The position numbers and the translations under genes were made by a program. A stretch of DNA of 64,000 bases, taken from UHGV virus genome UHGV-1440165. One strand, written 5' to 3'. Below the pieces are notes generated by a model. The model made no database searches, was not told where the DNA came from, and saw only the letters and a list, made by a program, of their open reading frames with translations. Positions 2,599 to 64,000 of this stretch are shown here, piece by piece (position 1 is the stretch's first letter; every line of letters begins with the position of its first letter). Source of the DNA: a virus.

Positions 2599-3326
2599 TA
2601 TTCTGTTTCTCCTTCGTTTTCGTCCAGATCGAATTGGGTGTTGCCGAAGTCTTGATCTGAATTGTCTTCGGCCTGCGCTGTTACCGTATTCTTACCTTGT
2701 GACATGTATTGAAGTATGCCTTTCGCGATCTTTTTGTTCGATTCGGCGGCTCGGGCGTTCTCTACCTTCTCCCGCTCCTTCTGTCTTTGGGCATCCTTCT
2801 TGTTTTCGAAGTTTCCGATGCGCTCGCGGAAGTCCATGCCAATCCCAGTGGCATCAACAAAGATCTCTTGTTGGAAGTCAGGATCATCGGCCAGGCCTGC
2901 AAATCCACCTGCCTCTTCAAAGGAACGCAGCTTGATGTATGTGTGCTCTTCTTCTATGTTCAGCTTGCGGGCAAATGAGCGGTCAGCGCACATGGTCACC
3001 CAGGAGAAGAAGTTGATCTTGCCTTTGCGCCCGACGTGACCAACATCGAAGGTGTGGAGATAGCGAAGGATGTTGACTACAGCTTCAGACACCATGTCAT
3101 CGCGGTACGGATAATCGCGGTAATTGTAGCGGGTGCTCATCTTGCTGATGATGCGCTGGACCTGGACTGCAACGTAGTTGGGGATCTTGGGGAGCGGTGT
3201 GCCTTCAGTTAATGCCTTCTTGCGAGCGGGGATCCAATCACGAAGGATACTGATGACACGCTCGTTATCTTCGTCCGTAAAATATTTGACGACATTCTCG
3301 CCACGATCAACATAATTCATACCCAT
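2598..3326 (-). CDS. gp55-like late-transcription sigma factor (putative)
   Basis: 242 aa, ATG start; N-terminal half resembles T4 gp55 in pattern and sits next to the gp47/gp46-like genes as in T4; acidic C-terminal tail. Confidence 0.45.
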   Translation of the reverse strand: MGMNYVDRGENVVKYFTDEDNERVISILRDWIPARKKALTEGTPLPKIPNYVAVQVQRIISKMSTRYNYRDYPYRDDMVSEAVVNILRYLHTFDVGHVGRKGKINFFSWVTMCADRSFARKLNIEEEHTYIKLRSFEEAGGFAGLADDPDFQQEIFVDATGIGMDFRERIGNFENKKDAQRQKEREKVENARAAESNKKIAKGILQYMSQGKNTVTAQAEDNSDQDFGNTQFDLDENEGETE

Positions 3327-3337
3327 TGTGGGAACCC

Positions 3338-3865
3338 TCAGATACCGATAAATTCATCAAAAGATCCAACAACCTTCTTCACAGAGATCTTGTCGTTCTC
3401 AATCAGGAAGTTGCTGTCGTTCTTGGCTGCGGTAGCCCATGTGTCCGCGAGTTCATTGCCTTCAACACCCGCATGACCTTTGACCCATTTTAGTTCAACT
3501 TCACAAATTGAACTAACGAGATCATATATTCTGAACAGATCTTTTATGAGTTCAACATTCTTTTCCGGGAACCCCTGATACTCCCACTTGGCTCGCCATT
3601 CGGTGACGCTCTTGATGGTGTATTGACTGTCAGACCAAATTGTTGCCTTTGGTATCCTGCGCTCACCCTTTCCCGAGAATGCCCACAGTAGCTTCAATGC
3701 GTTGGTCACACCCAACAACTCGGCGATGTTGTTGGTGGACGGAGGAGGTAGGTGGCCGAAGAACACCTTCCATTGCATACCCGATATCGGCCTGATGGCA
3801 AAAGCCCACCCTGCAGCCTGATTTGTCCGAGGGTTAGAACCCCCGTCAGAAAAGATTTCAATCAT
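3338..3865 (-). CDS. Ribonuclease H (type 1)
   Basis: RNase H motifs IFSDGGS, TNNIAELLGVTNAL, DSQY, KGHAGVEGNELAD. ORF track extends to 3961 via a non-ATG start; first ATG is at 3865 (MIEIFSDGG...). Confidence 0.8.
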   Translation of the reverse strand: MIEIFSDGGSNPRTNQAAGWAFAIRPISGMQWKVFFGHLPPPSTNNIAELLGVTNALKLLWAFSGKGERRIPKATIWSDSQYTIKSVTEWRAKWEYQGFPEKNVELIKDLFRIYDLVSSICEVELKWVKGHAGVEGNELADTWATAAKNDSNFLIENDKISVKKVVGSFDEFIGI

Positions 3866-3867
3866 GA

Positions 3868-3875
3868 TATAAATA
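3868..3875 (+). promoter_or_regulatory. T4-type late promoter box TATAAATA (plus strand)
   Basis: Exact TATAAATA about 36 nt upstream of the ATG at 3911; RBS AGAGGAA lies between. Confidence 0.5.
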
Positions 3876-3910
3876 TCCCAAACTGGTTTTATAGAAAGAG
3901 GAATGAAACT

Positions 3911-4678
3911 ATGGCACCCCGCGCATATCGTTTCAGTCTCACCGCCCCGCAGATTGAGCAATTGCTCCTTTCTATCAATGATGCTATCAAGTCAGAAGAT
4001 ATCATCTATGATTATGCTACAGGTGGGACTGTTGGGCAAGTCGCAGCAGCGTCTGCCGTCAAGAACATGTGGCTCAAGCTCAATGAGATGGTGACAGGCC
4101 AAGGCCTCAAAGACGCCATCAACAGTGCTGGCGACAGCAACGTGTTCACCGACTATTATAAGTCTCTTCTGGATCGCGAAGGCTGGAAATTTATTGGCTC
4201 CCCAGCAGATATCCTGGCTCGAGACGATATCGACACCACGAACTTCACGGGCGGCGAAGTCATTCTACTTCAGAAGAACGCCTCAGGCAACCCTGAGTTC
4301 CAATACTGGAAGCGAACTCCCGTCGCGGGTGGTGACCCTACCTTCGCCTGGGCTTCGGTCTATGAAGGGAACTCCAACGACTCAACAATCGAAATCCCGG
4401 TGATCGGCACGAGCGTCCTCAAAGACATTCCCAAGGCTCTCTTCCATATGGTGGAGTTCCGAGTTCATGTCTATGACGAAACGCTGGGGCACTGGCAGGA
4501 TACAGACGGCAAGGTCGGTTATCGTGGTGAGGATCTGTTCTACAGCACGTACAATCATGTGCAGACCAAACCGCTCGCCACCATTGACTTCAGCCAAGAC
4601 ACAGACAGCATGAAGATCTCCGTGACTTCCCTGGAGCCGAATGTCAAATGCCATCTGTCGTTTATCGCTGGTTACTAA
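3911..4678 (+). CDS. Hypothetical late protein on plus strand
   Basis: ATG at 3911 with AGAGGAA RBS and upstream TATAAATA; 255 aa with protein-like composition. ORF track (3752..4678) begins at a non-ATG codon. Confidence 0.55.
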   Translation: MAPRAYRFSLTAPQIEQLLLSINDAIKSEDIIYDYATGGTVGQVAAASAVKNMWLKLNEMVTGQGLKDAINSAGDSNVFTDYYKSLLDREGWKFIGSPADILARDDIDTTNFTGGEVILLQKNASGNPEFQYWKRTPVAGGDPTFAWASVYEGNSNDSTIEIPVIGTSVLKDIPKALFHMVEFRVHVYDETLGHWQDTDGKVGYRGEDLFYSTYNHVQTKPLATIDFSQDTDSMKISVTSLEPNVKCHLSFIAGY

Positions 4679-56416: not shown

Positions 56417-56896
56417 TCATGTCGTACTCCATTGAGACACCCTGATAAGCCATGCAGACACACCCAAACCTCCGGTGGTGGTGGGCGTTTGTCCTGGGTC
56501 GACTGTCTTTGGAAGTGAGCCGCCCCAACGATATAAAGAAGTTCCGTCGCTGACGACTTCGTTTTTCACGCGAATGGTGAATCCAGAAGTGAAATCTTCA
56601 GTCAGAACCACGAACTCTTCCCGAAGCACGGCGAGTGCTCCGAGATCTATAGTTCCTGCAGAGTGCACAAGAACTCCATCTATCAGGCTGGTGATGGTAG
56701 CGCCAGCGGGCAGGTTAGAAGGCAATGCATAGGAGCGCTGAGACACCTTATCGTAGATCACCTTGTAACCAGTCAGGGTGGATCCTGGTTTAGCATACAG
56801 AACCTCGGACTTCTTGCACCCGAACTTGCGTGCAATAGAGTCCTTGTTGGTCTCTTTCGAGACCGCACCTTTCGGCTGTGAAAATTGCGGATTCAT
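56417..56896 (-). CDS. Hypothetical structural protein
   Basis: 159 aa, ATG start; between tailspike genes and the giant ORF. Confidence 0.4.
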   Translation of the reverse strand: MNPQFSQPKGAVSKETNKDSIARKFGCKKSEVLYAKPGSTLTGYKVIYDKVSQRSYALPSNLPAGATITSLIDGVLVHSAGTIDLGALAVLREEFVVLTEDFTSGFTIRVKNEVVSDGTSLYRWGGSLPKTVDPGQTPTTTGGLGVSAWLIRVSQWSTT

Positions 56897-57058: not shown

Positions 57059-59497
57059 TTACCAAGACCAAAGATTACCATTGGTATCACAGTTTCCAGT
57101 AGCAACAACCTTAGTCAGACCAGAACCACCCCTAGTCTGGAAGATGTTACCAGTAAGGTTAACAAGTGAGGTGTTTCCATAAGATATATTAATATCTTCA
57201 GAATACCCATAAACTATATTAGCTGACACAGTTGCAATTGCACGGCTATCCGAGTTTGTATTATCCAACCTGATACCATACTGACCAGGTGATACTGATG
57301 CATGTACAATCTGGTTGTTACTGATATTAACGTTACCAACGCTGCGAATATTACCAACAGTAAGAGCGGTATATGCCCCAGGAGTTGGTGCAGTAAACAG
57401 CATTTGATTGCCATTAAAGGAAAACCACCGCAAGCCTTGGGTTGTTGTGGTATTGGTAGTTGTTGTAACTTGGATGTTTTCAAACTGGTTATTATCAATC
57501 TTAACAGTTGCACAGGATTTAATGTGCAGAATTGCCTGCTTATTAAATGAAGTAAACTTGTTATTGACAAAGCTAACTGAAGTTAGTACATCTTGGTCTT
57601 GTTCATAATAAATACCACCAATTGATGTATACTCTGATGGGTTATTAAGAACAGCCGTGTTACCATCAAAGATAACACCCTTGCAAAGACCAATAGCAAC
57701 TAAGCAACCATTTAGTGCATCCTTGGTGTTATTACCTACAGCTACAGAATCAGTACAACTCTCAAAGTCAATGCACACATCTTTGCAGCCATCAACAGCG
57801 TTGCCAGTGATAGTAACCCTATCACCCATAGCACCCCAAATGCCACCTACGGCATTACGTACAGTGTTACCAGAGATTGTTACGTCATTACACTTACGAG
57901 GCTTAGTCATGTCATAGCCCTCATCTGCTTTAAGTGCATCTCCACCAACGAACTGGATACCTTCCTTGTGACCATCAATGTAATTACCGCTAATACGCGC
58001 CATCTTTGCATATGCAGTATAGATTGCAGCTGGTCTGAATGGCGCCCCAAGCACACCATCACCACTACCATAAGACTGACAGTTTACAACTTCAATGTTA
58101 GTACAGTAATCTGCATCCGTTGTAATAAGTGGATATGCACTACCAGCACCAAATCCAATATCATGTGCAATCATGGGGTTTGGACACTTACGAGACTTAG
58201 TAGAGAATAGCGCCATTATCACAGAGACACAGTTACGCATTGAAACATTGTTACAGGAGACTAAGTTAACAGCTGGTGCAAGTGATACACTAGATGCGGC
58301 ATCAAACCTAAGACCTTTAAAAACTATGTTAGATTTCTCAATACCTGTAAATACAGCTTGCCCCTCTTTATCAAGCGTCACCTTGATAATGGCATTATTA
58401 CCACTATGTATCTGGTTAGATTCGAGCATAAGTACACCAGAGTCAACAAGATAAGTACCAGCTGGGTAATCTATCTTGCGTGCACCAGATAATATTGCAG
58501 ATTGAAGGGCTGCGGTATCATTTGTAACACCATCACCGATAGCCCCAAAGTCACGAATGCTGATCGTCTCCAGTAGTTTGTCATGAACTGTACGTGAGAC
58601 GGCACTTGCTAACGGCTGTTTCATCCCTATCAGGGCATCACCTAATACAACGTTAGTAGTGTCCACAAGGTCGTCGCGTAGGTTAGGGTCAGTTTGCGGA
58701 ATCCAATCCGCAGTACCGACCGGGTTAGCCCCTGCGGCTATGACGTGCGGCAACGTCCCGGCCCATGAGTACCACGTCTTACTCACAGGGTCATACACTA
58801 CCTTATTACGGTCGTTAACACCGAGTGTACCTCCAGTATAGAATGTAAACCCAGCGTCAGTGTAGCCATTTTCAATCGCCCAATTAAGTTTTAATTTAAC
58901 CAAGTCAGTATCAATATCATTAAGTTCTTCCTGTACAGTTTGACCGGAAGACGTACCAATCAGACTTGCGCCTCCATCGGAAGAGAGCGCCAGGTAATTC
59001 TGCTTAATGGACATTTCTGCCACGACCCAAACTCCAGCCGCAGGCGAACCTGTGAGGAAACTCACAACTCCTGTTGTGCTGTTGTAGCTGTAGTTGACGC
59101 CAGGAACCTGGAACCGCCCATCGACGTACAGGGACTGCACCCCATAAGATGTGAAGTCTGGGGTGAATGAGGTCTCGTTGCCAACGGCCTGGAATTTGTA
59201 GATGCGGATCCCGTTTTCATAATCTTCTGGGGACAGGATCTTGTCAAACAGACAGTACACTACATCATCAGCCTCCAGCGCTCGACCGAGGTTGACTGTG
59301 TTGCCATCGATTTCGTAATTGTCTACGGGAACCTGAACTCCACCATTGATGGTGATGAAGCCTGTAACGGGATAGAACGGGAGGGAGATAAACGTCTCTC
59401 CACCCGTTGCTGTGTAAGTGTATGGAATCTGGTGCGGGGCTGTTACAACCGCTCCAAAGATGCTCTCGACGTTTCTGGTCATTTGAAGATACCCCAT
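57059..59497 (-). CDS. Tailspike protein with pectate-lyase-type right-handed beta-helix (putative depolymerase)
   Basis: 812 aa; IRDFGAIGDGVTNDTAALQSAI (about 58493..58558) is the hallmark N-terminal motif of pectate-lyase-superfamily beta-helices; N/T/G-rich repeats downstream. Confidence 0.7.
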   Translation of the reverse strand: MGYLQMTRNVESIFGAVVTAPHQIPYTYTATGGETFISLPFYPVTGFITINGGVQVPVDNYEIDGNTVNLGRALEADDVVYCLFDKILSPEDYENGIRIYKFQAVGNETSFTPDFTSYGVQSLYVDGRFQVPGVNYSYNSTTGVVSFLTGSPAAGVWVVAEMSIKQNYLALSSDGGASLIGTSSGQTVQEELNDIDTDLVKLKLNWAIENGYTDAGFTFYTGGTLGVNDRNKVVYDPVSKTWYSWAGTLPHVIAAGANPVGTADWIPQTDPNLRDDLVDTTNVVLGDALIGMKQPLASAVSRTVHDKLLETISIRDFGAIGDGVTNDTAALQSAILSGARKIDYPAGTYLVDSGVLMLESNQIHSGNNAIIKVTLDKEGQAVFTGIEKSNIVFKGLRFDAASSVSLAPAVNLVSCNNVSMRNCVSVIMALFSTKSRKCPNPMIAHDIGFGAGSAYPLITTDADYCTNIEVVNCQSYGSGDGVLGAPFRPAAIYTAYAKMARISGNYIDGHKEGIQFVGGDALKADEGYDMTKPRKCNDVTISGNTVRNAVGGIWGAMGDRVTITGNAVDGCKDVCIDFESCTDSVAVGNNTKDALNGCLVAIGLCKGVIFDGNTAVLNNPSEYTSIGGIYYEQDQDVLTSVSFVNNKFTSFNKQAILHIKSCATVKIDNNQFENIQVTTTTNTTTTQGLRWFSFNGNQMLFTAPTPGAYTALTVGNIRSVGNVNISNNQIVHASVSPGQYGIRLDNTNSDSRAIATVSANIVYGYSEDINISYGNTSLVNLTGNIFQTRGGSGLTKVVATGNCDTNGNLWSW

Positions 59498-59518
59498 AGA
59501 GGATTTGCCAATATGGGG

Positions 59519-59525
59519 TATTTAG
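59519..59525 (-). promoter_or_regulatory. Late-promoter-like motif (GACTAAATACCCC)
   Basis: About 22 nt upstream of the 59497 start. Confidence 0.45.
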
Positions 59526-59549
59526 TCTAAAGAACGATTTGTAGATTTA

Positions 59550-62504
59550 TCAAATTATGCAATAACTAATAACCCCAATTGCTGTAGATGCGGCATCATT
59601 TGCATTCATTGCAATCATCACATTAAGTCCAGAACCTACGTTCTCTCGGCTCAGTATTACTTCACCTTCTCGCCCAAAATCGCTTTTTATAACAACAGGC
59701 GAGGATGGGTTATTTACATTGTTGATGGTTATTGAAGCGCTTACTTGTGTGTTTCCTGATGCAGCATTTGTCGGTACGGACACAATGTTATATTTAATGT
59801 AACATTGATGTCCATATGGAACGTTGAAAAAACCAACGTTCTTAGAGACATCACCAGTAACAGCTGTGTTTAATGTAACCTTCCCATCTTCTTTGAAGCC
59901 ATTGTAACCTTTCCAATCTGATTCAATCATACTGAAAGGAACTGGTCCGAGTTTTCCATCAGTACCAGAGTAACAGTTACTGCTAGAGAAGATGAACTGG
60001 CGTGAGTCAAATTCAGCAGGTCCAGTAGGTGCCTGGATATATAGAACCTTATTTTTAGTTTGAGCGAATCCATTACCAGTAATTAACAGTGGGAATGGGA
60101 AACCTCCACTTAGTGCTGTTGTTGATTTCTGCACCCAGATATCATATCCATTGAACAGGAAGCAGTTACCAATAATGGTCTTAGAGCCTTCTGAGGCCGG
60201 ATTGCCCACAGATGCCGGGATAGTGAAGTTAACCCCAATAGGGTTATTTTCAATCTGTGAACCACTCATATAGAAACTGGTATTCCACCCCGCAACAATA
60301 CCCACTGTTGTGTTTTCTGAAATGGTGCAGCCAATAATCGACTGAGAGCCAGCAAAGGAAAACTCGCTGAGTGATAAGCCACGACCGTTAAGAACGAACT
60401 CACACCCAAAGAAACGGTTTTGGTCAGAACCACCTTCGGCAGAGCCATCTACCTTATCGATGTTACAGCCCGTGGAGCACCACAGGGCGTGCACGTTATA
60501 GAAGTTGTTGAGGTAAACAACACCCGCTAACTTAATACCAAAATCAAAATAACGGATATGAAGACCACTGAAGTTGTTCTCACGAACATGGAAAACTCCG
60601 GCATTCACCGTTTCGTCAACAGATACCCCACAGTACCCATTAACGTTAAGATCTGGCCCCTCTAACATCAAATCCTGTATTTTTACACCAGTTATCCCAT
60701 AATCGAATCGATATCCATCTAGCACAGGCACCAGTTTAAAAATGTCATTATGACCCACTGCCTTAAAGCATGGCATCTGTTTACGAGCTACGGTGGATCC
60801 GCCGTCACCAACAATTTTGATTGGCTTGTTGATGGTGATCGCAGATGAAATCTTATACATAGACTTTGGTGTAGGCACGATGAGCGTACCACCCCACGGG
60901 GTAGCATCAACAGCAGCCTGGGTTGCTGCCGTATCATCAGTACTACCATCACCAGTGGCAAACCAACCAAGGTTAACAGCACCAACTGTTTGGCGTTTCC
61001 AACGTAAACCTGTAGTGTCTACTAAGATGGTCCCCCCATTATCAGCAGAAGTCGCATCAGTGGGGTCGGATTCAAAGATACCAAATCCGCCATCGTATTT
61101 ATTAACCTTTCCTAGACTGTAAACTCGACCATTAACTGGATTTGTATTGGCACGAACATCTGCATAATTGGCAGCACCAATCAAACCAAACCCCAATTTT
61201 CCTGCCAGATTTTTTCTCAACTCGGTTGCCGAGTCGGCAACATCCAAAAGAGTGACTGTCGTGTTCGTACTGCCAACGACATATGTCAGCTGATTACCAG
61301 AGACACTCACAATAGATGCCGTGGTTGGGATGCCCGCTGGGAGTCCCCAAGATTTCTGCGCGACCACGTCATAGATGACGGTCTTACCATTCAGCTTGGT
61401 GATCGTATCAGAACTGAGGATCACCTGAGAGACAGGCACGTTAGCTGCCCGAGCAACTTCATTTGGGGTACGGTCAATCTGGTTGTACAGGGTCGGATCA
61501 CCGTTGATGACAACAACCACTTCATCACCCGCATCCAGCTCATCCGCAAGTGTGATCAGCTTCGTCGTGGAATTATACTGGAACCCAAGATTCTTTTGCT
61601 GGCGTGTGCCGTTGATAAAGATCTCAGACACTTCTTCTGCGTCGACGTCCAGTGTAATTGTTGTCTCGCCGCCTACCGCCGAGCCAGAGTTGTACACCCA
61701 AGTGATGACAGTACCGCCGCCGGAACCACTACCGCCTGCTCCGAGTTGGATAGGGACATACTGGATGATCTGCAATTCTGAACCAGAGGTCAGAGCTGGG
61801 CTGAAATTAACATTGTAGCCATCCAGGGAATACTTGGAATCCAGCAGGCGCTTGCCATCGACGTAGACATCAACGATAGATGGCTGGGTCGCCAGCGTCA
61901 CCTGAGTCGTGTCGGTGGCCAGGGTTGTGGTGAAGATTGTACGGCTGTACACGCGCCCTTGCCCCAGACCAACTCCAGCAGTGACGATCCAACCACGAGC
62001 ATCACCAGACCAGGTGAAAGTGGCAGACACGCTATCCGTGGATAATGTCATCGGTTCAGTAGAACCATAGATGGCATAACCGTTCGGATCGATGGTGAGA
62101 GGATAGACGGAGAATTTACCGTACAGGTCGCATACAGTAACAGAGTCGCCAACGCGCGTAGGATCCGGAAACACCACCGTAGAGACGCCGGAAGAGTTAT
62201 CCACCAGATAGCCCCGCCCTTCAGCCAAAGTTGCCGTAGAGGCATGAGGAAGCACTTCCCAGCGGATACCTCCACCACCCAGAGGTAGCCAACCCCCGTT
62301 CTCGTAATAACCTTCGAATTCGTCGGACGCAGAATTGTATCGAACAGCGGAAGGAAGACCATCCACAGCATCACCTTCAGGGACGGTCATCACCGCATCC
62401 GGTCCATGTTCGATGATACCAGTGTTGAGGACACCAGCCAGTTTAGATTGCTCAGCAGTTTCAAGCCCGAGAGGGAAAATCGGCTGTGTTGGTTTGTTAG
62501 CCAT
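59550..62504 (-). CDS. Tailspike protein with pectate-lyase-type beta-helix (second, distinct)
   Basis: 984 aa; VNLGWFATGDGSTDDTAATQAAVDA motif mid-protein; long N-terminal region preceding the beta-helix. Confidence 0.7.
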   Translation of the reverse strand: MANKPTQPIFPLGLETAEQSKLAGVLNTGIIEHGPDAVMTVPEGDAVDGLPSAVRYNSASDEFEGYYENGGWLPLGGGGIRWEVLPHASTATLAEGRGYLVDNSSGVSTVVFPDPTRVGDSVTVCDLYGKFSVYPLTIDPNGYAIYGSTEPMTLSTDSVSATFTWSGDARGWIVTAGVGLGQGRVYSRTIFTTTLATDTTQVTLATQPSIVDVYVDGKRLLDSKYSLDGYNVNFSPALTSGSELQIIQYVPIQLGAGGSGSGGGTVITWVYNSGSAVGGETTITLDVDAEEVSEIFINGTRQQKNLGFQYNSTTKLITLADELDAGDEVVVVINGDPTLYNQIDRTPNEVARAANVPVSQVILSSDTITKLNGKTVIYDVVAQKSWGLPAGIPTTASIVSVSGNQLTYVVGSTNTTVTLLDVADSATELRKNLAGKLGFGLIGAANYADVRANTNPVNGRVYSLGKVNKYDGGFGIFESDPTDATSADNGGTILVDTTGLRWKRQTVGAVNLGWFATGDGSTDDTAATQAAVDATPWGGTLIVPTPKSMYKISSAITINKPIKIVGDGGSTVARKQMPCFKAVGHNDIFKLVPVLDGYRFDYGITGVKIQDLMLEGPDLNVNGYCGVSVDETVNAGVFHVRENNFSGLHIRYFDFGIKLAGVVYLNNFYNVHALWCSTGCNIDKVDGSAEGGSDQNRFFGCEFVLNGRGLSLSEFSFAGSQSIIGCTISENTTVGIVAGWNTSFYMSGSQIENNPIGVNFTIPASVGNPASEGSKTIIGNCFLFNGYDIWVQKSTTALSGGFPFPLLITGNGFAQTKNKVLYIQAPTGPAEFDSRQFIFSSSNCYSGTDGKLGPVPFSMIESDWKGYNGFKEDGKVTLNTAVTGDVSKNVGFFNVPYGHQCYIKYNIVSVPTNAASGNTQVSASITINNVNNPSSPVVIKSDFGREGEVILSRENVGSGLNVMIAMNANDAASTAIGVISYCII

Positions 62505-62541
62505 TTCAAATACCCCTAAATGTGTTCATGTCATCTAGGGG

Positions 62542-62548
62542 TATTTAG
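62542..62548 (-). promoter_or_regulatory. Late-promoter-like motif (AACTAAATACCCC)
   Basis: About 38 nt upstream of the 62504 start; overlaps an ACCCCTA...TAGGGGT inverted repeat. Confidence 0.45.
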
Positions 62549-62556
62549 TTTTCATT

Positions 62557-63726
62557 TTAGAAAGAAGCGACCAGATTGTAGTCTACTGTGCACGCTGTTG
62601 ATGTGTTCGCATTCGTTATTATCAGACGAAGTTTTGAAGCTACAACCGAACCCGCAAATGTGATTGTTCCAGAAGTTGATTTCTGAATCAGTAACTCAGT
62701 CTTAATAGTTCCGTCTCGAGTGATCGTGACACGATACGTATCGACAACGTTACCAGTGCCCCATTGGGCTGCAACCAATACCTGGCAAAGGTTCACCAGG
62801 TTGAAATCAGGCAATGCCGTGTTACCTGAAGCAGCGATGGTGATACCGCTCGGGTTCGTCTTACCAATCGTCACACGGGCAGCATCAGCCGCATCCAGCG
62901 CCGCCATCTTGGTGTTGTAGGTTGAGGTGTCCACCTTAGCAGCGATGCTGGCATCCAAAGACGTCATCTTCGTATTGTACGTGCTGACATCCACTTTACC
63001 GGAAGTCAGGCTAGCAATACTCGCGTCCAGTGAAGTCATCTTGGTGTTGTAGGTCGATGTGTTGACCTTGGCAGCCAGAGTTGTGTTCACAGTGTTGAAC
63101 TGAGACTGAATATCCAACATATCCGCGTCATAGTCAACAACTTTCACGTAATCATTGAATCTGTTGTCTGCAAACACGGCGTTGAAAAATGCTGTGGTAT
63201 CATACTTGACCGTGTCAACACCACTGGTCATCAACATCTGCGCTGGGGCACCAGAACCGGAATATGATGGCAAGTTGGTCCCATCGATTAAGAGTTTGTT
63301 GTACCCTCCAGGGAGCAATTCGATCCGCAGGCCGGAATTAGATCCAGCAGTGTCTTCGCTAACACCGTGTTTGCGCAGCATTGAAAGGTTGACACCATCG
63401 GTGGAATCAATCGGTTCATCCGTGATGGTCAGTTTCTTCCCCGTGGGGACACTGACACCTCCGAAAGCCCTGATCTCAGCCGCAAAGGTTTTACGACCAT
63501 TGATCGTTTGCTCGCCGCCATCAGTTCTGATAACCTTGGTGCTCAGGGTATCATTGATGGTGTCCACCGCAACCTTGAGCTGATATGTCAGATGCGAAGA
63601 TGCGGGGAATAGAGCATCATCCACCGCGAAATCGTTGGTTATATCGTTCTTGCTCACCTTCTCGTCAACAGACCCAAGAATCTGATCAATCTGCTGACCT
63701 GTGTAACGACTCAGGAAATCGGCCAT
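62557..63726 (-). CDS. Tail fibre-like protein with internal tandem repeats
   Basis: 389 aa; three tandem 21-aa repeats (STYNTKMTSLDASIA...) in the middle; T/S/N-rich. Confidence 0.5.
   Translation of the reverse strand: MADFLSRYTGQQIDQILGSVDEKVSKNDITNDFAVDDALFPASSHLTYQLKVAVDTINDTLSTKVIRTDGGEQTINGRKTFAAEIRAFGGVSVPTGKKLTITDEPIDSTDGVNLSMLRKHGVSEDTAGSNSGLRIELLPGGYNKLLIDGTNLPSYSGSGAPAQMLMTSGVDTVKYDTTAFFNAVFADNRFNDYVKVVDYDADMLDIQSQFNTVNTTLAAKVNTSTYNTKMTSLDASIASLTSGKVDVSTYNTKMTSLDASIAAKVDTSTYNTKMAALDAADAARVTIGKTNPSGITIAASGNTALPDFNLVNLCQVLVAAQWGTGNVVDTYRVTITRDGTIKTELLIQKSTSGTITFAGSVVASKLRLIITNANTSTACTVDYNLVASF
62878..63072 (-). repeat. Three tandem 63-bp in-frame repeats inside the fibre gene
   Basis: Near-identical nucleotide repeats encoding V(N/D)TSTYNTKM(T/A)(S/A)LDA... 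Confidence 0.7.
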
Positions 63727-63728
63727 TT

Positions 63729-63980
63729 TTAGCTCCTCGAACTTTCCAGGAATACAGTAAACCCAGCAGGATGGAAATGCTGACGGAAGACACGCTCAAA
63801 CACGCCTTCAAAATCAGATACTTCGCCAGGAACTCTTATCACGTATGTGAATTCATCATAGTAATAGTCATCGCGCATACCAGTTGCGCCATCACATTCA
63901 AAGTTGTCATCAAGTCCACCGATAACTTCCTTCGGGTAATACACGTTCACTGGGCAACCAAAGTAAATCCAGAAGAACAA
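63729..63980 (-). CDS. Hypothetical protein, possibly N-terminally incomplete at window edge
   Basis: 83 aa ORF ending 2 nt before the fibre gene start; true start may lie beyond 64000. Confidence 0.3.
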   Translation of the reverse strand: MFFWIYFGCPVNVYYPKEVIGGLDDNFECDGATGMRDDYYYDEFTYVIRVPGEVSDFEGVFERVFRQHFHPAGFTVFLESSRS

Positions 63981-64000
63981 CTCTATCGCTTTCTTTGTCC

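Follow-up and report, generated by a model that had tools for sequence, protein, structure and literature searches.

The gene at positions 62557..63726 (minus strand) of a 64,000-nucleotide (nt) stretch of UHGV virus genome UHGV-1440165, the whole of which we call the window, encodes a 389-amino-acid (aa) fiber-like virion protein whose residues 220 to 284 consist of three in-frame tandem repeat units. These units are probably modules of a trimeric coiled-coil stalk that spaces a C-terminal domain from an N-terminal anchor. The repetition lies far beyond chance, and comparison of the copies suggests that they are old and a stable feature of this genome; across relatives, sequence comparison supports the repeat block as the place where the protein family changes length. 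By similarity, the window is assigned to a phage of the Ackermannviridae and the 389-aa gene to the orthologs of CBA120 orf215 and Vi01_174. A modular coiled-coil stalk is ordinary for phage fibers and has not previously been described in this family.

Three repeat units conserved at the protein level

From the N-terminal side, unit 1 covers aa 220-243 (62998..63069; 24 aa, 72 nt; KVNTSTYNTKMTSLDASIASLTSG), unit 2 covers aa 244-263 (62938..62997; 20 aa, 60 nt; KVDVSTYNTKMTSLDASIAA), and unit 3 covers aa 264-284 (62875..62937; 21 aa, 63 nt; KVDTSTYNTKMAALDAADAAR), all on the minus strand and in frame. The segment STYNTKMTSLDASIA occurs exactly twice, and the third copy reads STYNTKMAALDAADA. 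In the protein, the best 20-residue self-match is 17/20, whereas none of 300 shuffles exceeded 9; at the nucleotide level it is 39/60, and 100 codon shuffles never exceeded 33. An earlier sequence-only reading had reported three in-frame 63-bp tandem repeats at 62878-63072; the number of copies, the frame, and very nearly the location hold, but successive units start 72 and then 60 nt apart rather than at a uniform 63. The three clear units are preceded by a degenerate unit 0 (aa 195-219; 63070..63144, minus strand; KVVDYDADMLDIQSQFNTVNTTLAA, beginning KVVDYDADML), in which Y199, D200, D202, and M203 are nearly invariant among homologs and the hydrophobic residues Y-M-I-F-V-L-V are spaced 4-3-4-3-4-4, like those of the other units.

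At the DNA level the copies are far from near-identical, as they had been described: pairwise identity over the shared 60 nt is 62%, 63%, and 75%, and the longest exact runs common to unit pairs are 8, 7, and 18 nt. Between units 1 and 2, 17 of 20 residues agree but only 37 of 60 nt; 13 of those 17 residues use different codons, and of the 20 third codon positions just 5 agree, which is at or below chance. Because the proteins are alike while the codons differ, the repeats appear to be old and to have been held alike, at the protein level only, by selection. Tandem Repeats Finder, run over positions 58000-64000, did not report the array even at a minimum score of 30, because it is too diverged and irregular. 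The divergence of the DNA copies also means that the concern about a collapsed assembly, raised with the original description, does not apply, and the independently sequenced phages pSal-SNUABM-02 and CAU_YEP3 have three units in the same arrangement; on these sequences, assembly collapse or active slippage at the repeats is very unlikely. In DNA, the nonadjacent units 1 and 3 resemble each other more closely (75% identity, with an 18-nt exact run) than the adjacent pairs do (62 to 63%, with runs of 7 to 8 nt), which could reflect selection against recombination between neighbors or just the history of duplication.

Heptad spacing and the stalk model

Each unit would consist of two parts, a conserved knot, K-V-(D/N)-x-S-T-Y-N-T-K, followed by a short stretch of alpha helix, M-x-x-L-D-x-x-I, with its hydrophobic residues at heptad a/d positions. 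The conserved hydrophobic positions are Y226-M230-L233-I237-L240-V245 in unit 1, Y250-M254-L257-I261-V265 in unit 2, and Y270-M274-L277-(I)281-V285 in unit 3, and across 29 homologs the spacing is 4-3-4-3 within a unit, 4-5 to the V of the next knot, and then 5 to the next Y. We read this spacing as a/d heptads that break off at every KV(D/N)xSTY knot, and the knot, which would interrupt the heptad phase in the same way each time, is probably a discontinuity of the beta-layer type. Unit lengths across 121 proteins are quantized, at 20, 27, 34, or 41 residues (7n+6) or at 24 or 31 residues (7n+3), with a single aberrant length of 35. Length change by whole heptads is a hallmark of coiled coils. 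End to end, the units would build a rod that fixes how far the C-terminal beta-sandwich stands from the virion-proximal N-terminal part. That the stalk is a trimer with beta-layers is our inference, as is a step size of ∼1 nm per heptad and 3 to 4 nm per unit.

An AlphaFold 2 (AF2) model of the monomer contains four consecutive helices, at residues 200-220, 223-241, 247-264, and 267-284, one for each of units 0 to 3 and with breaks falling exactly at K-V-(D/N), followed by a confident beta-sandwich at 295-389 (predicted local distance difference test [pLDDT] values of 80 to 90). The repeat module is also found well outside the orthologs of this protein. When 1.8 billion representative proteins were searched with a profile, most nonorthologous matches covered the stalk region only; the proteins matched are long, unrelated phage tail proteins that have Prophage_tail or GpJ domains and carry the 20-aa unit in tandem (e.g., KVESSTYTSKMTQLDSAISS). 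A weakly similar repeat, GKADLSYVNTQL, occurs in cyanophage A-1(L), where it lies in the short tail fiber stem, whose solved structure is a trimeric helical bundle. Searches of the PDB with the alignment profile and with the repeat region alone gave weak matches to TP901-1 BPP and to the A-1(L) fiber, which we used only as hints. Polyubiquitin entries matched by phmmer with the whole protein were set aside as spurious, being built from many subthreshold stretches of ∼3 bits each, and Pfam matches in relatives to NPV_P10, DUF4795, and similar families were dismissed as generic coiled-coil noise.

Insertions of 6 residues into the heptads of trimeric coiled coils are known to make beta-layers, and a module of a related kind, LxxKADKxxVYTKxE, is found in phages and adhesins (Hartmann et al. 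2016, PMC4786415). In a by-eye alignment, the residues common to IAAKVDTSTYNTKMT and that module are L/I, K, D, T, T, and K.

Length variation among relatives

Copy number was compared among 120 homologs and 11 phage orthologs, in which clear units number from 2 to 5 per protein and single units also differ by whole heptads. The clade comprising this phage and its two closest relatives has the shortest common version, with units of 24+20+21 residues in a protein of 389 aa; the corresponding layouts are 27+24+24 in Kuttervirus (396 aa), 24+34+21 in AG3 and Limestone (403 aa), and 4-5 units in Taipeivirus (417 to 441 aa). The three-unit layout of the window is present in pSal-SNUABM-02, in CAU_YEP3, and in the metagenomic relatives P0001-P0003. 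Each clade keeps its modal length, and variants are sporadic.

Several of these variants bear out the earlier proposal that the repeats are a hotspot for length variation. In P0006, from Salmonella Newport isolate run SRR8508936, a clean in-frame loss of 60 nt fuses units 2 and 3 at TAC AAC ACC, so that unit 2 is effectively lost, and the neighboring tailspike is identical at 978 of 982 residues (99%) to the 984-aa tailspike of the window. P0004 (93% identity) has one extra heptad (+7 aa), and P0103, P0011, and P0020 carry deletions. Escherichia phage A221 (accession no. ON862890.1; gene at 1001-2272 of extract L014) has a perfect tandem duplication (81/81 nt) of a 27-aa unit at nt ∼690-852 of the coding sequence, which adds a fourth unit and brings the protein to 423 aa, compared with 396 aa in other Kuttervirus; such a perfect copy points to a very recent gain of a unit. 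Whole units are gained and lost in the family, through recombination or slippage between units, and whole heptads are gained and lost inside a unit; since the changes come in whole units or heptads, the coiled-coil register would be kept and the stalk would change length stepwise. The contig that carries the two-unit variant, a Logan assembly of run SRR8508936 (∼157 kb), is a near-complete Ackermannviridae genome, with the fiber-like gene at 3001-4110 of extract L013.

Alternative explanations

Some of our results sit less comfortably with a coiled-coil stalk. The 24- and 31-residue classes of unit require an extra 4-residue stutter, and agreement with the published beta-layer consensus is only partial (K-V-D ... 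Y-N-T-K versus K-A-D ... V-Y-T-K; the other published consensus compared was [aliphatic]-A-T-K-[polar]-[DE]). Taken alone, the phmmer hit on the A-1(L) stem lacks significance (E value of 8.1), and the AF2 model, which is a prediction of the monomer alone, has a mean pLDDT of 66 and reaches only 63 to 78 in the stalk. Further, an effect of stalk length on adsorption or host range is not supported by the present comparison: as each clade keeps a modal length and departs from it only sporadically, most of the variation could be neutral or mildly deleterious.

Three other explanations compete with the stalk. If the block were a recent, slippage-prone DNA repeat, that is, a variable-number tandem repeat or contingency locus, its count would be unreliable or hypervariable. 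Units are indeed gained and lost in the family, as the 60-nt deletion and the perfect 81-nt duplication in A221 demonstrate, but we give this account almost no credence given adjacent units that are 62 to 63% identical in DNA, third codon positions that agree at or below chance, exact runs of 7 to 8 nt, a period that is not constant, the silence of Tandem Repeats Finder, and an arrangement of three units that is kept in pSal-SNUABM-02 and CAU_YEP3 (90 to 96% identity) and in P0001-P0003. It is also conceivable, though in our view highly doubtful, that the units bind a ligand such as a carbohydrate or cell wall component and that their number tunes avidity rather than length. Repeats of this size bind ligands in some surface proteins, and a Tyr, a Lys, and an Asp are invariant in every unit; against this stand the heptad spacing of the hydrophobic residues, the length changes by whole heptads, the one predicted helix per unit, the presence of the module in many long, unrelated tail proteins, where it lies in the shaft, and the structure of the weakly similar repeat, which was solved as a helical-bundle stem.

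The third explanation concerns the whole protein, which could be the counterpart of T4 gp9, with its N terminus in the wedge and its C-terminal domain forming a socket for the tailspike complex via the TSP4 anchor; in that case the repeats would serve to space the tailspike complex outward instead of belonging to an independent receptor-binding fiber. A T4-like gene order, a conserved C-terminal domain, and a match in the C-terminal fold all favor it, and gp9 is the best structural match of the AF2 model by two methods (Foldseek against the PDB, T4 gp9 1qex_A, E value of 8.9e-6). With hhalign, however, aa 294-337 align to the start of the gp9 C-terminal domain at an E value of only 0.054 and a probability of 1%, and neither T4_gp9_10_N (PF07880) nor T4_gp9_10_C (PF23618) of Pfam matches even at an E value of 10, whereas T4 gp9 itself matches them at 1e-73 and 1e-42. 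Among predicted viral structures, moreover, this fold of ∼105 residues is found at many positions in many fiber and baseplate proteins, so likeness of fold is weak evidence of function; T4 gp9 is also without a long repeat stalk. For these reasons of weak alignment, absent Pfam matches, and a widespread fold, we take the modeled C-terminal domain to resemble gp9 in fold and not to be a member of its family, and we regard the adaptor role as unlikely. Even in that role, the repeats would still be read as a spacer. A broader version, in which the Ackermannviridae, said to lack T4 gp9-gp11, keep a gp9 counterpart after all, with orf215 as the adaptor that receives the TSP4 anchor and its stalk as a spacer that can evolve stepwise, is a speculation that we consider improbable.

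Comparison with known systems

The closest systems to the stalk proposed here are the other members of the PHROG 3838 family in the Ackermannviridae (CBA120 orf215, Vi01_174, Det7 205, and Sajous1 gp135), which have the same repeat block, are likewise encoded between the wedge genes and TSP4, and differ from the window protein in the layout of the units, the window clade having the shortest common form. Alpha/beta coiled coils with beta-layers, known from trimeric autotransporter adhesins and phage fibers (e.g., the streptococcal prophage hyaluronidase HylP1, KADKETVYTKAE), likewise have short heptad segments interrupted by breaks at fixed intervals; in both groups the break starts with Lys-x-Asp and has Tyr/Thr-Lys before the helix resumes, and the 7n+6 unit length corresponds to the size of a beta-layer insertion. 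The motifs themselves differ, KADKxxVYTKxE in the beta-layer proteins versus KVDxSTYNTKM in the window protein, for which a trimer with beta-layers would be the expected geometry. In Anabaena myophage A-1(L), gp33 (PDB 8KEC/8KE9) has repeated units of the GKADLSYVNTQL type followed by a C-terminal globular domain, as in the window protein, but its C-terminal domain binds the cell wall, the phage belongs to another lineage, and the similarity is not significant. T4 gp9, the connector of the baseplate to the long tail fibers (PDB 1QEX), is alike in its C-terminal fold, its N-terminal helical part, and its position just upstream of a gp10-like gene; it differs in that its N-terminal coiled coil is single and short, its middle domain is XD1, and no repeat stalk separates that domain from the C-terminal one. 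More generally, T4 fibritin and the adenovirus fiber shaft are trimeric rods of repeated segments in which the number of segments varies between relatives and sets the length of the fiber, although their repeat motifs differ from the window units and the adenovirus fold is a triple beta-spiral.

Other regions of the protein

The N-terminal module (aa 1-130; 63337..63726, minus strand), in which short helices precede the generic trimeric-fiber motif KVIRTDGGEQTINGRKTF, is probably the virion-proximal anchor, judging from its distribution. It has weak profile matches to the N terminus of the receptor-binding protein TP901-1 BPP (E value of 0.011) and to BppL_N. The first 130-180 aa recur alone in otherwise different, longer proteins (P0131, P0132, P0137, and P0142), and Pseudomonas phage Cygsa01 carries the N-terminal part only (aa 1-128, 38% identity); recurrence of this kind is the usual behavior of a virion-proximal anchor. 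In the unrelated 602-aa protein P0126, a segment like aa 60-114 (xQTIxGxKTF ... VPTGKxLTITDxP ... D) is repeated ∼6 to 8 times in tandem over residues ∼100-520 and matches BppL_N at an E value of 2e-40, which suggests that this part of the N-terminal region is itself a repeatable fiber module. The middle region (aa 131-194; 63145..63336, minus strand) is the most variable part of the protein, with 45% identity to CBA120, compared with 70 to 75% for the flanking parts, and is modeled as low-confidence beta strands (pLDDT of 52 to 67).

The C-terminal beta-sandwich domain (aa 286-389; 62560..62871, minus strand), whose best structural matches are of the T4 gp9 type, is among the best conserved parts, at 88% identity to Dickeya phage Coodle and 74% to Escherichia coli phage CBA120. 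Conservation at this level would be unlike that of the usual receptor-binding tip, and divergence of the distal part with host range is not seen in these sequences. The established receptor binders of the Ackermannviridae are the tailspikes (PMC11721090), and the demonstrated receptor binder of GSP004 is a tailspike as well (PMC12724128). The designation of the protein as receptor binding was thus an assumption, set against known tailspike binders and a C-terminal domain conserved across host genera; the structural term "fiber" is reasonable, as generic trimeric-fiber motifs are present. The "tail fiber ORF208" of GSP004 was considered as a counterpart of the 389-aa protein and rejected, being a P22-like tailspike instead. 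Our literature search found no functional study of the orf215/gp215/Vi01_174 protein and no cryo-electron microscopy structure of an Ackermannviridae baseplate.

Gene identity and neighborhood

The closest named counterpart of the 389-aa gene is gene 105 of the Salmonella phage pSal-SNUABM-02 (Agtrevirus), which is labeled "hypothetical protein" and is 95.6% identical in nucleotides; a gene for a "structural protein" in the Yersinia phage CAU_YEP3 is 90.1% identical. Full-length protein identity is 98% to pSal-SNUABM-02, 78% to Agtrevirus AG3, and 64% to Kuttervirus. Searches of Pfam with the protein and with the repeat returned no family, and PHROG 3838, of unknown function, matches over residues 1-389 (E value of 3.9e-184). 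With tblastn, the protein matched 284 phage records, nearly all of them from the Ackermannviridae, and 281 of these cover at least 80% of the query; full-length orthologs occur in Kuttervirus, Agtrevirus, Limestonevirus, Taipeivirus, and others and include CBA120 orf215, Det7 205, and Sajous1 gp135. The annotation of phage May equates the gene with Vi01_174 of phage ViI, a "putative tail fiber protein." The product is a virion component in Sajous1, where the ortholog gp135 gave 74 spectra in mass spectrometry of CsCl-purified virions (PMC10892097).

The order of gp6-like and PF23786 wedge genes, then the 389-aa gene, and then the first (TSP4-type) tailspike was found in every genome examined (pSal-SNUABM-02, CAU_YEP3, CBA120, AG3, Coodle, IME250, Magnus, May, Bue1, 2050H1, and Sajous1). 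In the window, the 3' end of the baseplate wedge gene (63732..64000, minus strand) is cut by the window end; its 89 residues are all identical to the C terminus of the pSal-SNUABM-02 gene 104 product, which matches PF23786 at an E value of 6.7e-148. The 389-aa open reading frame (ORF) begins with ATG at 63724-63726 and has its stop codon at 62557-62559, and a Shine-Dalgarno sequence, GAGGAG, can be read at 63733..63738 (minus strand), 6 nt upstream of the ATG. The TAA stop codon of the wedge gene (63729-63731) sits between GAGGAG and this ATG, all within 12 nt, which points to tight coupling of the two genes. A scan for promoters and terminators around the 389-aa gene found nothing above expectation. 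Downstream lies the 984-aa tailspike (59550-62504). The ORF of 66 aa listed on the opposite strand over the repeats (62720..62920) was rejected as a mechanical artifact of the ORF list, because the minus-strand gene is conserved at full length. Elsewhere in the window, a 159-aa ORF at 56417-56896 (minus strand), between an 812-aa tailspike and a 1,607-aa DUF4815 (VriC-like) gene, has a Tail_spike_N domain alone (TSP1/gp66 N-terminal domain, E value of 7.4e-15) without a catalytic body; pSal-SNUABM-02 calls the same 480-nt gene a "putative tail spike protein," and from its domain content it looks like a truncated tailspike remnant.

Implications

In practical terms, the repeat stretch is not an assembly problem, and the gene is fittingly annotated as a conserved fiber-like virion protein with a modular coiled-coil stalk, neither as "hypothetical" nor as a proven receptor-binding fiber. 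The gp9-like C-terminal fold offers a lead on how the tailspike complex attaches to the baseplate. The family also amounts to a natural series of stalk lengths, running from 2 to 5 units, quantized in heptads, and in one case differing beside an essentially identical tailspike. Such a series could be used to ask whether the length of a fiber or adaptor matters for adsorption in the Ackermannviridae, phages that are widely used in the biocontrol of Salmonella, E. coli, Klebsiella, and Dickeya.

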